Origin: Nemertoderma westbladi
Lineage: Eukaryota > Animalia > Xenacoelomorpha
Assembly: GCA_032718475.1 (NCBI GenBank)
Contig: JAUCBJ010003968.1
Location: forward strand, 1-57,519
Length of the DNA stretch: 57,519 nucleotides
Direction of reading: 5' to 3'
In this document: in pieces, positions 1,112 to 19,912 of the stretch
How the letters are laid out: each line of letters opens with the position of its first letter
Numbering within the stretch: position 1 is the first letter of the stretch
Notes under the pieces: model-generated
Databases searched by the model: none
What the model was told of the DNA's origin: nothing
What the model saw: only the letters and a program-made list of their open reading frames with translations
Made by a program: the position numbers and the translations under genes

Positions 1112-1237
1112 ATGTTGATGAATGTACCGAAAACACACACAACTGCCACAGTAATGCCGACTGCACAAATACTGACGGTGGATTTAGTTGCTCCTGCAAG
1201 TCTGGGTATTCTGGAGATGGTAAAGATGTCTGTGCAG
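1112..1237 (+). CDS. Exon: calcium-binding EGF domain 1 (126 nt, phase 1-1)
   Basis: tttttag|...|gtaata; [42 protein letters not shown], six Cys and the D-x-D-E-C cbEGF consensus. Confidence 0.92.
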
Positions 1238-19200: not shown

Positions 19201-19912
19201 GAATAATGGGTAACAAGGTGCCCTGAATCGAGTACCTTTTGCTGTTAAAACAAAAGGAAACAAATTAAATGGCGGGTTTAAGTAGGCGCTCAAGACTCAT
19301 TTTTGATAATAAAAATTTGTAAAATGATCAATATTTAATCTGCATTTGTGTGTGTAGATCGAAACTCACTCTCCATACATAGGAATCAAGGTTAATTTTC
19401 ATAATCTTCAATTCCTGTATACAATCACCGCCGATTTTCAAAATTTGCTTCCACTTAAACACGCCATTTCGACCGTGTCCTCGTGTTTTTACAAAAAACG
19501 CACCCGGCCACTCGATTCAGGGTACCTTGTTACCCATTATTCGATTGTTTCTAGCCCAACAATACTTTCCCTCACCAACCCTATCTATTGCGCAAAATTC
19601 ATTGATTTTCGTTGTTCTTAGATAACGTTACAACATCCAAAGTTGAACATTAGATTAACATTCAAAATATACACATTACTGACAGTGACAACTAACACTT
19701 TATTACAGGCAAATCGCAATAGTTCGAAGATACAATGGATAAAGGAAAAGTTGTGGCCAGAGAATGTAATTCCACGAACTCTGAGTCATTATGAATGGAT
19801 AATTCGCATCACTTTGCCTGCATCTTTTATGATATTCAACTTCGTCTATTGGGTTTATATACTGTCAGTTACATCTTCTACGATTGATAACTATATGAAA
19901 GATGAACTTTGA
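1112..19912 (+). CDS. Spliced gene, 5'-incomplete: at least 4 cbEGF domains fused to a Cys-loop ligand-gated ion channel (anion-channel-like family), about 600 aa visible
   Basis: 14 GT-AG exons with compatible phases: 1112-1237, 1709-1834, 4221-4346, 5680-5805, 6012-6033, 7226-7305, 7842-7960, 8234-8397, 8835-8932, 9099-9236, 9735-9906, 16678-16839, 18320-18458 (or -18470), 19709-19912. They join into a stop-free frame with WIDTRY, a C-x13-C loop and M1-M4. No start codon or signal peptide exon found. Confidence 0.8.
1709..1834 (+). CDS. Exon: cbEGF domain 2 (126 nt, phase 1-1)
   Basis: tttcacag|...|gtaagt; [42 protein letters not shown]. Confidence 0.92.
2050..3860 (+). mobile_element. Degenerate RTE-like non-LTR retrotransposon (copy 1), internally deleted
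   Basis: Broken RT frames ([31 protein letters not shown]); high nucleotide similarity to 33205-34692. Confidence 0.85.
4221..4346 (+). CDS. Exon: cbEGF domain 3 (126 nt, phase 1-1)
   Basis: ctttttag|...|gtaatt; [42 protein letters not shown]. Confidence 0.92.
5288..5390 (-). ncRNA. tRNA-like Pol III cassette containing a minimal type I hammerhead ribozyme (core 5323-5368)
   Basis: Minus strand: GGGGCAAG-TGGCTGAACTGG (A box)-TT-AGCGCTA-CTGATGA-GGCCTGATAGGGT-GAAA-CGTAAG-TA-TAGCGCT-GGTTCAACCCC (B box)-...-TTTTTT. Confidence 0.78.
5680..5805 (+). CDS. Exon: cbEGF domain 4 (126 nt, phase 1-1)
   Basis: ttttgcag|...|gtaaga; [42 protein letters not shown]. Confidence 0.92.
6012..6033 (+). CDS. 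22-nt linker micro-exon (phase 1-2) joining EGF and channel parts
   Basis: catttacgcag|TCTTGGAAGAAGCATTTGATGG|gtaagt; VLEEAFDG; supplies exactly the phase change needed between flanking exons. Confidence 0.7.
6080..6260 (+). mobile_element. tRNA-derived SINE, possibly MetaSINE-like
   Basis: A box TGGTGTAGTG, B box GGTTCGATCC, then GCCTTGCATCCTT...AAATGAGTAC, which resembles the Meta domain as recalled (not searched). Confidence 0.55.
6572..6836. repeat. About 265-bp imperfect palindrome
   Basis: Arms of about 115 bp: tgtgttaactttca...gggacctaacgc and gcgttaggtccc...tgaagttaacaca. Confidence 0.85.
6840..7118. repeat. 39-bp tandem repeat, about 7 copies
   Basis: Unit gttttgtacaggtctttagtttttgggtctttagacttt; explains the 13-aa periodic ORFs. 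Confidence 0.95.
7226..7305 (+). CDS. Exon: channel N-terminal helix region (phase 2-1)
   Basis: ttttattaaaag|...|gtaagc; [26 protein letters not shown] resembles the Cys-loop L..GYD...RP motif. Confidence 0.72.
7478..7583 (-). ncRNA. Second, 5'-deleted copy of the hammerhead/Pol III cassette
   Basis: Minus strand TGCTA-CTGATGA-GGCCTGATAGCCT-GAAA-GTACG-TA-TAGCA-CAGGTTCAACCCCC; shares about 60 bp downstream flank with copy 1; A box lost. Confidence 0.72.
7842..7960 (+). CDS. Exon: channel extracellular beta1-beta2 (phase 1-0)
   Basis: tatctgcag|...|gtaaga; [40 protein letters not shown], WxDxRL-like motif. Confidence 0.85.
8234..8397 (+). CDS. Exon: channel extracellular loop A to beta6 (phase 0-2)
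   Basis: ccgccag|...|gtaagt; [54 protein letters not shown], IxPDGxV motif. Confidence 0.85.
8835..8932 (+). CDS. Exon: Cys-loop (phase 2-1)
   Basis: gttctag|...|gttagt; [33 protein letters not shown]-x13-C with FPxD. Confidence 0.9.
9099..9236 (+). CDS. Exon: channel beta8 to loop C (138 nt, phase 1-1)
   Basis: ttatgtag|...|gttggt; [45 protein letters not shown]; an in-frame alternative acceptor would start the exon at 9108. Confidence 0.75.
9435..9686 (+). mobile_element. About 250-bp MITE, family A (copy 1)
   Basis: TIRs aga(t/c)agggg..aact(g/c)gacgcaa; near-identical copies at 48555-48797 (-) and 56412-56615 (+), degenerate copy at 28774-28945. Confidence 0.8.
9735..9906 (+). CDS. Exon: beta10, M1 and first half of M2 (phase 1-2)
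   Basis: tttcag|...|gtatga; [57 protein letters not shown] matches the anion-channel pattern YxP...FWI....PARxxLG. Confidence 0.92.
10330..10478 (-). mobile_element. tRNA-derived SINE remnant
   Basis: Minus strand GGTGGGGAGCTCAGTTGG...GGGTTCGAACC followed by GGTCGATATAATGAGTACCAG; a similar 5' head fragment lies near 47490-47516. Confidence 0.55.
10570..11497 (+). mobile_element. RTE-like LINE copy 2, 5' part (interrupted)
   Basis: [22 protein letters not shown] and AYGIPEEII...FEVLWGVLQ; similarity stops at ttattca (11497). Confidence 0.85.
11498..15657 (+). mobile_element. Insertion carrying a second, different non-LTR retrotransposon (RT C-terminal half and TAA tail)
   Basis: [16 protein letters not shown]...[12 protein letters not shown]...KICE...KTKSKCIAF...[12 protein letters not shown]; ends in (taa)n; the RTE resumes precisely at 15658. 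Confidence 0.78.
12311..14810. repeat. 32-bp satellite, about 78 near-identical copies
   Basis: Unit actgaacctaaggcgtgtatcgttctaaacgg; 78 x 32 plus four 1-nt insertions = 2500 bp. Confidence 0.97.
15658..16580 (+). mobile_element. RTE-like LINE copy 2, 3' part
   Basis: Continues taattgtggttga; [15 protein letters not shown]; 3' end gcagcatgccgat plus gtagt tail as in other copies. Confidence 0.85.
16678..16839 (+). CDS. Exon: second half of M2, M2-M3 loop and M3 (phase 2-2)
   Basis: ttttcag|...|gtctgt; [54 protein letters not shown]. Confidence 0.85.
16886..17740 (+). mobile_element. RTE-like LINE copy 3, 5'-truncated
   Basis: [14 protein letters not shown]...[15 protein letters not shown]; very similar to 33860-34680. 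Confidence 0.9.
18320..18458 (+). CDS. Exon: M3-M4 intracellular loop (phase 2-0); alternative in-frame donor at 18470
   Basis: tttttctag|...|gtgagt (or |gtgggt); open hydrophilic frame [46 protein letters not shown]; phases fit both neighbours. Confidence 0.65.
19160..19584. mobile_element. MITE with about 70-bp terminal inverted repeats
   Basis: tagggttggtg...gggtaacaaggtgccctgaatcgagt versus actcgattcagggtaccttgttaccc...caccaacccta. Confidence 0.78.
19709..19912 (+). CDS. Terminal exon: M4 and C-terminus ending KDEL-stop
   Basis: tattacag|GCA...; ...[26 protein letters not shown] matches the M4 consensus R..FP..F..FN..YW; ends ATG AAA GAT GAA CTT TGA. Confidence 0.9.
   Translation, partial: ANRNSSKIQWIKEKLWPENVIPRTLSHYEWIIRITLPASFMIFNFVYWVYILSVTSSTIDNYMKDEL

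Follow-up and report, generated by a model that had tools for sequence, protein, structure and literature searches.

A candidate Cys-loop channel gene with four calcium-binding EGF modules in Nemertoderma westbladi

Overall structure of the gene

The window analyzed here (the whole 57,519-nt stretch at positions 1–57,519 of contig JAUCBJ010003968.1, Nemertoderma westbladi assembly GCA_032718475.1) contains, on the forward strand between 1112 and 19912, 14 AG/GT exons that join into a single stop-free frame of 600 residues, with AG at all 14 acceptors and GT at all 13 donors. The joined frame opens with four calcium-binding EGF (cbEGF) modules, continues through a bridge exon of 22 nt, and ends with a Cys-loop subunit encoded by nine channel exons, the last of which ends in a stop codon at 19910–19912. 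All 14 exons named in a preliminary description of this DNA (four 126-nt phase 1-1 cbEGF exons, a 22-nt micro-exon, and nine channel exons in a stop-free frame) are present, and a single gene combining cbEGF modules with a Cys-loop subunit, as proposed there, is the best reading of the exon chain. The range given for the gene, 1112–19912, holds for these exons but misses a likely first exon at 422–512. The features are as follows.

422–512, + strand: candidate first coding exon, with an ATG, a signal-peptide-like sequence of 30 residues, and a phase-1 donor fitting EGF1
1112–1237, + strand: cbEGF1 exon, 126 nt, phase 1-1 (EGF_CA, 47.6 bits)
1709–1834, + strand: cbEGF2 exon, 126 nt, phase 1-1 (EGF_CA, 44.8 bits)
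4221–4346, + strand: cbEGF3 exon, 126 nt, phase 1-1, a duplicate of EGF1 including intron flank (EGF_CA, 45.8 bits)
5680–5805, + strand: cbEGF4 exon, 126 nt, phase 1-1, a duplicate of EGF2 (EGF_CA, 43.7 bits)
6012–6033, + strand: bridge exon of 22 nt (phase 1 to 2), encoding the linker from EGF4 into the channel (splice signals)
7226–7305, + strand: channel exon with helix α1 and the next loop (aligned with the GluCl/GABA-like N-terminal helix)
7842–7960, + strand: channel exon with β1–β2 and the W-x-D-x-R motif, the β2 binding arginine being substituted (profile alignment)
8234–8397, + strand: channel exon from loop A to β6, W retained and P-D lost (profile alignment; weak acceptor, −4.0)
8835–8932, + strand: channel exon with the Cys-loop (C-x13-C with F-P-x-D) and loop B (Pfam LBD and PDB matches)
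9108–9236, + strand: channel exon with β8–β9 and loop C (profile alignment)
9735–9906, + strand: channel exon with β10, the pre-M1 arginine, M1, and the first half of M2 (best PDB match GABA-A delta, E 2.8e-5)
16678–16839, + strand: channel exon with the second half of M2 (13' Arg), the M2–M3 loop, and M3 (profile alignment, gapless through M2)
18320–18470, + strand: probable M3–M4 intracellular loop exon, phase 2 to 0 (splice signals only)
19709–19912, + strand: last coding exon, with the loop end, M4, and the stop codon (best PDB match GABA-A beta2, E 0.02)

The least secure exons are the 22-nt micro-exon and the M3–M4 loop exon, both placed by splice signals only; an alternative donor at 16843 (score 2.7 versus 8.0) would allow the loop exon to be skipped in frame. 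The splice-scoring matrices were built from the same exons that they score. Retroelement fragments and a 2.5-kb satellite are found in the introns. The neighboring exportin-6 shows 38–41% identity alike to mollusc, annelid, nemertean, chelicerate, and vertebrate proteins among the best 120 of 237.

EGF array and candidate first exon

Each of the four EGF exons scores above the Pfam cutoff for EGF_CA (43.7–47.6 bits; cutoff, 27), and all four modules match the calcium consensus (six Cys with D/N-x-D/N-E/Q ... D/N ... F/Y), with five residues between adjacent modules. EGF3 is identical to EGF1 at 115 of 126 nt (pS, 0.205; pN, 0.061), and EGF4 to EGF2 at 105 of 126 nt (pS, 0.423; pN, 0.103). The value of pN is below that of pS in all six EGF pairs, in line with conservation of these exons at the protein level. 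Duplication of an exon pair accounts for the array. On the four upstream exons, Pfam detected EGF-type families only, with no C-type lectin, pentraxin, LDLa, or other non-EGF extracellular family; a 'Toxin_9' match on EGF2 (E 0.013) was under the cutoff and was discarded. Modules resembling EGF3 are found linked with a wide range of extracellular and receptor domains in other proteins, among them an amphioxus 7-TM receptor model (P0003). Since every EGF exon has phase 1-1, the frame would be kept in isoforms carrying anything from zero to four EGFs.

The preliminary description had recommended looking upstream for a signal peptide and more EGF exons; a candidate was obtained for the former, whereas no EGF exon beyond the four occurs in the whole window. 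In a hydropathy and donor scan of our own making, exon 422–512 shows a 10-residue hydropathy of 3.05 and a donor score of 4.5, with a GC content of 48–54% against about 30% in the surroundings and a second ATG at 431. Besides this exon, signal-peptide-like phase-1 exons occur at two more loci only on both strands of the whole window. Of the donors upstream of EGF1, that at 538 scores highest (10.2, against 4.5 at 512), and splicing from 538 to EGF1 puts the signal-peptide frame out of register. An internal exon of 51 nt at 488–538 was rejected for its acceptor score of −3.6, although not firmly, since the accepted exon 8 (8234–8397) has an acceptor of −4.0. For both the signal-peptide and the bridge tests, the thresholds were chosen after the candidates were known. 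Exon 422–512 is a candidate signal-peptide exon in phase with EGF1, with which the gene would be complete at 631 residues and have exactly four EGFs. The earlier figure of 20 or more EGF modules per pentamer presumes a homopentamer and further upstream EGFs; it draws on no extra exon in the window, and the candidate first exon would set the number at four per subunit.

Probable junction between the EGF array and the channel

The EGF4 donor is a strong phase-1 site (9.3; rank 10 of 1325 GT sites), and the first channel exon at 7226 opens in phase 2. Within 5806–7225, the exon at 6012–6033 is the sole bridge with a donor score of at least 8, its donor being the best in this 1.4-kb gap, and an alternative in-frame acceptor lies at 6021. 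Among 162 overlapping non-coding blocks, 10 contain such a phase 1-to-2 bridge; with looser thresholds, the gap itself holds 35, mostly inside a 39-bp repeat. About 11–12 residues separate the last cysteine of the EGF array from helix α1. With the joint drawn from splice signals alone, EGF4 is probably spliced to the channel, which would make the two parts a fusion in one gene.

It is unlikely that the region instead holds two genes or exclusive isoforms, giving a secreted EGF protein or a transcript from which the EGF exons are always skipped, for example by splicing of exon 422–512 to the bridge exon, with which it is compatible in phase. Such an arrangement would fit the stop met within a few codons on read-through past the EGF4 or bridge-exon donor, the poly(A)-type hexamers at 5812–6817 downstream of EGF4 (commonplace in AT-rich DNA), and the outcome of the protein searches, which turned up nothing that has both domains. 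The protein-level conservation of the EGF exons and the strong EGF4 donor speak against it, as does exon 422–512, since the EGF exons lie inside the channel's transcription unit if that exon is the channel's first. Furthermore, no signal-peptide-like ATG exon was found by the hydropathy and donor scan of 5806–7225, where the preliminary description had looked to such an exon as the mark of a separate channel gene. Possible channel starts in this region were rejected: the surroundings of the in-frame ATG at 7179 have 13% GC and its hydropathy is 1.25, and the ATG exons at 6147, 6237, and 6410 are not signal-like or have the wrong phase.

Channel domain

Residues 195–478 match an anion-channel profile in one collinear stretch over six exon junctions (96.7 bits), with identities of 18–24% to relatives and references. 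Together with the matches of M4, this match covers a β-sandwich extracellular domain followed by four TM helices, the arrangement of a Cys-loop pLGIC; the four hydrophobic helices are present, the M2 and M4 segments being weaker. When the channel exons were searched singly, two of the nine matched Pfam channel families, exon 9 the LBD (E 4.5e-5) and exon 11 the membrane family (E 0.0034), neither reaching the cutoff. In the PDB, the M1–M2 exon matched anion-type receptors in 60 of the 60 matches listed, and the M4 exon matched GABA-A and GlyR; the best matches of the Cys-loop exon alone were cation-type receptors (60 of the 60 listed; best E, 0.0016), and exons 7, 8, and 12 singly gave no channel match. 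The ESM Atlas linked the M1–M2 exon to Neur_chan_memb-type clusters, and nothing usable there matched the loop-A exon. Judged from the profile match, the predicted subunit is a highly altered channel of the GABA/glycine/GluCl branch.

The Cys-loop (C-x13-C; Cys334 and Cys348 in the 631-residue numbering) is retained with its F-P-x-D, as are the pre-M1 Arg, M1 Pro, 9' Leu, and 23' Pro. In all, 24 of 63 invariant reference columns are retained and 39 are changed. The orthosteric set of GABA, glycine, and glutamate receptors proper is not preserved, with substitutions of the β2 Arg by Ile, the loop-B Ser by Ala, the loop-C Gly by Glu, and the terminal aromatic residue by Ile. The arginine, serine, and threonine of this set are described as taking part in carboxylate binding (PMC4178172). 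In the pore, positions −2' to 0' read N-A-R; thus Ala −1' and Arg 0' are retained, Pro −2' is replaced by Asn, there is no Glu at −1', and position 13' is Arg. For GlyR, the single replacement A-1'E is described as sufficient for cation selectivity, and deletion of the −2' proline as weakening anion selectivity (PMC2233820); a pore arginine in the muscle AChR is described as giving chloride conductance at positive potentials (PMC6800317). The channel is predicted to be anion-selective, with Ala −1' in favor and the −2' Asn against.

The loop-A P-D, the β1–β2 acidic residue, and the M2–M3/M3 signature are lost, so that gating may be poor or absent. It is quite unlikely that the fused protein is made but non-conducting, whether as a decayed or repurposed subunit that anchors an adhesion-type EGF ectodomain in the membrane or acts as its accessory subunit, or as a recent pseudogene. 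The low identity (18–24%), the 39 changed columns of 63, and a charged 13' residue, costly in five copies, are in keeping with that possibility; yet the 14 exons are free of stops, frameshifts, and broken splice sites although the introns have gathered retroelement fragments and the satellite, and the Cys-loop and the retained M1 and pore residues listed above also speak against it.

Searches for relatives

In the protein collections searched, no protein combined EGF modules with a channel. A protein search with EGF3 gave 45 matches among 46 candidates, with PF02931 or PF02932 in none of the 45, and comparison of these proteins with the channel part of the gene gave no score (best E, 1). With the M1–M2 exon, none of 22 candidates from a word-based protein search scored, and HMMER against 1.84 billion representatives returned 21 matches at E ≤ 0.001, of which 19 were models of anion channels in which the matched stretch is repeated and two were repeat artefacts; none of the 21 contained an EGF, and with a query of just 56 residues, the search would overlook distant, single-copy relatives. 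Two exons were also scanned against metagenomes, where the 598 and 242 pattern matches included no relative. No EGF-fused Cys-loop receptor was found in the literature, where coverage of subscription papers was thin, and no paper was found with 'calcium-binding EGF' together with 'cys-loop'. The protein and literature searches, weak as their negative outcome is, turned up nothing against the earlier remark that no characterised receptor of this architecture is known.

Discussion

The predicted subunit shares with GABA-A delta, gamma2, and beta, GlyR, GluCl, and pHCl the domain order, the Cys-loop, M1–M4, and Ala −1', Arg 0', and Leu 9'. It differs from these receptors in the four cbEGFs in front, the identity of 18–24%, the −2' Asn, and the 13' Arg, and lacks their β2 arginine, loop-B acid/aromatic pair, and loop-C aromatic residue. 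Tandem cbEGF arms or rods are known from EGF-TM7 adhesion GPCRs (CD97/EMR type) and fibrillin. In common with the EGF-TM7 GPCRs, a tandem cbEGF arm is placed on a signalling membrane protein and in-frame exon skipping is possible; here, in contrast, the effector is an ion channel, and there is a linker of about 12 residues and no GAIN-type domain.

Extra N-terminal domains had been regarded in the preliminary description as chiefly a prokaryotic feature, a view that no longer holds with 66 predicted genes for chimeric Cys-loop receptors in print for the lobster, carrying lectin, pentraxin, or LDLa domains and reported as confined to crustaceans (Polinski et al. 2021, PMC8221624). Both the lobster receptors and the present subunit are orphan animal proteins of the PF02931 plus PF02932 type that carry additional modules outside the cell; the lobster modules are C-type lectin, pentraxin, and LDLa, and 'EGF' occurs zero times in the main text of that paper, its domain table lying outside this comparison (PMC8221624). 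With this precedent, the cbEGF version is new but the principle of extra domains is not. DeCLIC and other prokaryotic pLGICs likewise have extra N-terminal domains and involve calcium, although DeCLIC is bacterial, its β-rich lobes are not EGF, and its inhibitory Ca2+ site lies in the canonical extracellular domain; the same source states that N-terminal accessory domains are absent from eukaryotic pentameric channels (PMC9897478). According to a phylogenetic survey, fused architectures are known from genome evidence only (PMC4795631).

We slightly favor, over all other readings together, one gene in which a four-cbEGF arm anchors or clusters a predicted chloride channel; given the fusion, an anchoring role of the arm is likely. 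Phase 1-1 EGF exons would have been inserted into the intron after the signal-peptide exon, and duplication of the two-exon unit would then have yielded four EGFs. Placed ahead of the sensing domain, the four modules would form a Ca2+-rigidified rod. The sites of cbEGF modules are usually Ca2+-saturated at extracellular levels, so that such a rod would be structural and not a Ca2+ sensor. The stiff outer arm probably binds matrix or cell-surface proteins, by which the channel would be anchored or clustered. The opening stimulus would be other than the classical amino-acid transmitters, or partner subunits would contribute the binding site.

Rather than anchoring, the EGF arm could serve as a gating input, in which a pull, a protein ligand, or loss of Ca2+ moves helix α1 and opens the pore; this is quite unlikely, and equally so is the fuller picture of a tether-gated pentameric chloride channel with a ring of 13' arginines that has abandoned small-molecule transmitters for force or a protein ligand of a neighboring cell or the matrix. 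The orthosteric residues are gone, which requires another input, and the linker between the EGFs and α1 is short (about 11–12 residues); however, several residues coupling the sensing domain to the pore are lost too, and the usual saturation of cbEGF sites also weighs against such a role. In DeCLIC, the N-terminal domain is described as altering gating kinetics (PMC9897478), in favor of a gating input.

If true, the anchored channel would be a second animal case beside the lobster, probably independent, and exon-shuffled on the anion-channel branch. Other Cys-loop receptors are anchored by separate scaffold proteins, instead of which the anchoring here would be built into the receptor itself. 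As a compact construct in which a likely signal peptide and four EGFs precede a channel, the gene would help to show whether a Cys-loop pore can be gated by a tether outside the cell, and its natural 13' arginine would be useful for selectivity studies.

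Joined EGF and channel exons

In a six-frame scan of the window, the plus strand showed four EGF-type cysteine patterns (1.1–5.8 kb); an extra pattern near 41 kb sits in a repeat and was discarded as a false match. The joined model consists of the following exons.

Exons of the joined model
1112–1237, +, EGF1
1709–1834, +, EGF2
4221–4346, +, EGF3
5680–5805, +, EGF4
6012–6033, +, bridge exon (22 nt)
7226–7305, +, channel exon 6
7842–7960, +, channel exon 7
8234–8397, +, channel exon 8
8835–8932, +, channel exon 9 (Cys-loop)
9108–9236, +, channel exon 10
9735–9906, +, channel exon 11 (M1–M2)
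16678–16839, +, channel exon 12
18320–18470, +, channel exon 13 (M3–M4 loop)
19709–19912, +, channel exon 14 (M4)

The 14-exon join encodes 600 residues with zero internal stops and carries AG acceptors (14/14) and GT donors (13/13), confirming the single stop-free EGF–channel frame of the preliminary description. All four EGF exons exceed the EGF_CA cutoff of Pfam and fit a consensus pattern for calcium binding. Five residues separate the last Cys of each module from the first Cys of the next, which is the spacing of a fibrillin-type rigid tandem. EGF1 and EGF3 align at 88% over 218 nt, and EGF2 and EGF4 at 84% over 151 nt; because each alignment includes part of the intron flank, a two-exon unit was duplicated. 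Among the EGF pairs, pN is below pS in 6/6, with small counts. Neither an additional EGF exon nor a second channel gene was found in the window by tblastn with the model.

The proposed EGF–channel joint

EGF4 terminates in a strong phase-1 donor, whereas the first channel exon begins in phase 2. Joined directly, the two would be out of frame, so that fusion requires a phase 1-to-2 bridge. In the gap between them (5806–7225), 6012–6033 is the sole bridge with a donor score of 8 or more. Comparable bridges occur in 0/81 overlapping non-coding blocks of equal length on the plus strand and 10/81 on the minus strand; relaxed thresholds yield 35 bridges in the gap, most within a 39-bp repeat. A signal-peptide exon in the gap, from which a separate channel would start, had been named beforehand as the case against fusion, and was searched for without being found. 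There is no ATG-to-donor exon in 5806–6011, three in 6034–7225 were rejected as not signal-peptide-like in the required phase, and an in-frame ATG 47 nt upstream of the first channel exon has 13% GC surroundings and a weak hydrophobic stretch. As no signal-peptide-like ATG exon is present and the in-frame ATG is weak, a separate gene starting within the gap is unlikely as judged from the sequence. We regard it as improbable that the EGFs and the channel reside in separate proteins.

The candidate first exon

Before EGF1, 30 codons starting from the ATG at 422 encode a hydrophobic core (10-residue mean, 3.05); they lie in a GC-rich island and end at a phase-1 donor at 512. Adding this exon gives 631 residues with zero internal stops. 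Scanning both window strands for signal-peptide-like exons returned eight donors at six loci (422–512, channel M3, the hydrophobic start of the neighbouring 5′-nucleotidase, which is likely a true signal peptide, and three more, two of them in phase 1), so that chance would place a match within the 1.1 kb ahead of EGF1 in something like 2% of cases, under thresholds chosen post hoc. The strongest donor upstream of EGF1 (538; score, 10.2), 26 nt past 512, speaks against this exon, since it does not fit the frame of EGF1 when read from the ATG at 422. It could instead terminate an internal exon of 51 nt whose acceptor is weak, in which case the real start would lie outside the window. Overall, 422–512 is a likely candidate for the signal-peptide exon of the gene.

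Assignment of the channel domain

In single-exon Pfam searches, the Cys-loop exon (E, 4.5e-5) and the M1–M2 exon (E, 0.0034) were weakly matched; the other seven channel exons, each alone, gave no channel match. Against the PDB, the M1–M2 exon matched GABA-A delta, GluCl, pHCl, and GlyR, being anion-type in 60/60 listed (best 60 of 119; one a GLIC–GlyR chimera). Among the matches listed, the M4 exon hit GABA-A/GlyR in 59/60 and the Cys-loop exon nicotinic and 5-HT3 subunits in 60/60, and exons 7, 8, and 12 had no channel match. An anion-channel profile, built from eight pieces of seven proteins, matched residues 195–478 in a single stretch spanning six splice junctions (96.7 bits, a score biased upward because the references were picked by match to the M1–M2 exon and aligned with the model, whose row was then taken out). 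The choice of channel exons from alpha1 to M3 thus has homology backing; the M3–M4 loop exon is a probable one, supported by splice signals only. Pairwise identity to the anion-channel references is 18–24%. We assign the protein to the Cys-loop superfamily, probably to its anion branch, and do not class it among GABA, glycine, or glutamate receptors proper.

The model retains 24/63 reference-invariant columns (same residue in at least five references), including W-x-D-x-R, the Cys-loop with F-P-x-D, the pre-M1 Arg, and the M1 Pro, and, around M2, Ala -1′, Arg 0′, Leu 9′, and Pro 23′. Missing are the beta2 arginine, the loop-A P-D, the beta1–beta2 acidic residue, the loop-B Ser and the acid before it (present in most references), the Gly and the terminal aromatic of loop C, and, around M3, the K-x-I-D and L-E signatures. 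M2 aligns gaplessly, with Asn -2′, Met 6′, and Arg 13′, the last being Thr in 8/8 references. A study of muscle AChR reportedly placed a pore arginine in two subunits. Receptors so altered conduct chloride at positive potentials with smaller currents (PMC6800317). In GlyR, A-1′E by itself makes the pore select cations, and a channel that has lost the -2′ proline stays anion-selective, though less so (PMC2233820). We infer an anion-selective pore, possibly heteromeric.

Introns and neighbouring genes

The introns of the model contain reverse-transcriptase-type retroelement fragments resembling a copy at 33–35 kb. Decayed copies lie at ~2400–3830, 10570–11500, 15650–16580, 16885–17740 (91% identical to 33861–34684), 33200–34690, and 49828–50436, with RVT_1 matches at 33202–33792 and 49828–50436. 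A 32-bp satellite (78 copies, 99% match, 12311–14817) occupies the M2-splitting intron, and intronic long inverted repeats at 6572–6836 (83% self-complementary) and 19159–19584 (67%) are probably small DNA-transposon remnants, related pieces of which recur at 9452–9686, 36463–37656, 48555–48790, and 56432–56615. The exons are unbroken although the introns collected retroelements and satellite, which favours a gene under selection; that the subunit no longer conducts, as the missing columns might suggest, seems unlikely.

Elsewhere, exportin-6 (42801–46091, +) is a single uninterrupted 1096-codon frame, unusual beside the intron-rich channel gene. A 5′-nucleotidase-type protein (Metallophos and 5_nucleotid_C; 51954–53756, −) also comes from one unbroken frame and is hydrophobic at its N- and C-terminal ends. 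The first exon of a ZSWIM-family gene lies at 55881–56189 (+; PDB match ZSWIM8, E 4.7e-11), an exon-like GC-rich open stretch of 75 codons without Pfam match at 25651–25875 (+), and two 12-bp tandem arrays of opposite orientation at 40391–40695 and 40948–41293.

Relatives and proposed function

The searches brought up no relative of like architecture: no channel domain occurred among the EGF matches (0/45) and no EGF among the M1–M2 exon matches (0/21; 1.84 billion representatives searched), and two metagenome scans found no relative. The neighbour-gene proteins are absent from the searched protein collection, exportin-6 is 38–41% identical to molluscs and vertebrates alike, and the lineage of the animal seems poorly represented in the searched data. 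As every remote query was a single exon (32–67 residues) and the lineage is so represented, these negatives are weak evidence of uniqueness.

The preliminary description knew of no characterised receptor of this kind, and the listings and abstracts searched contained no EGF-fused Cys-loop receptor, but animal receptors with extra domains are already published. The main text of the lobster genome paper describes 66 predicted Cys-loop receptors whose extra domains are lectin, pentraxin, and LDLa; some are expressed in brain and antennules, and EGF is not among the domains named there (PMC8221624). The architecture is therefore a variation on a described type and not a new principle. The DeCLIC study states that N-terminal domains are unseen in eukaryotic homologs, and that gating kinetics are affected by the channel's own N-terminal domain (PMC9897478); a Pro-loop survey removed terminal domains and knew such fusions from genomes only (PMC4795631). 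That the EGF arm itself gates the pore appears quite unlikely for the model.

We moderately favour a calcium-stiff EGF arm that anchors an anion channel opened by some stimulus or through partner subunits. Cys-loop receptors are clustered by scaffold proteins, and EGF-TM7 receptors and fibrillin rods serve as comparison systems. Once secreted into the membrane, each subunit would display a four-module cbEGF arm above its extracellular domain, joined by a linker of ~12 residues and stiff at extracellular calcium; by binding a matrix or cell-surface partner, the arm may hold the channel, whose pore is likely anion-passing, at one site. With 422–512 as the true first exon, the EGF exons would sit as symmetrical cassettes between the signal peptide and the channel, and transcripts carrying fewer EGFs would remain in frame.
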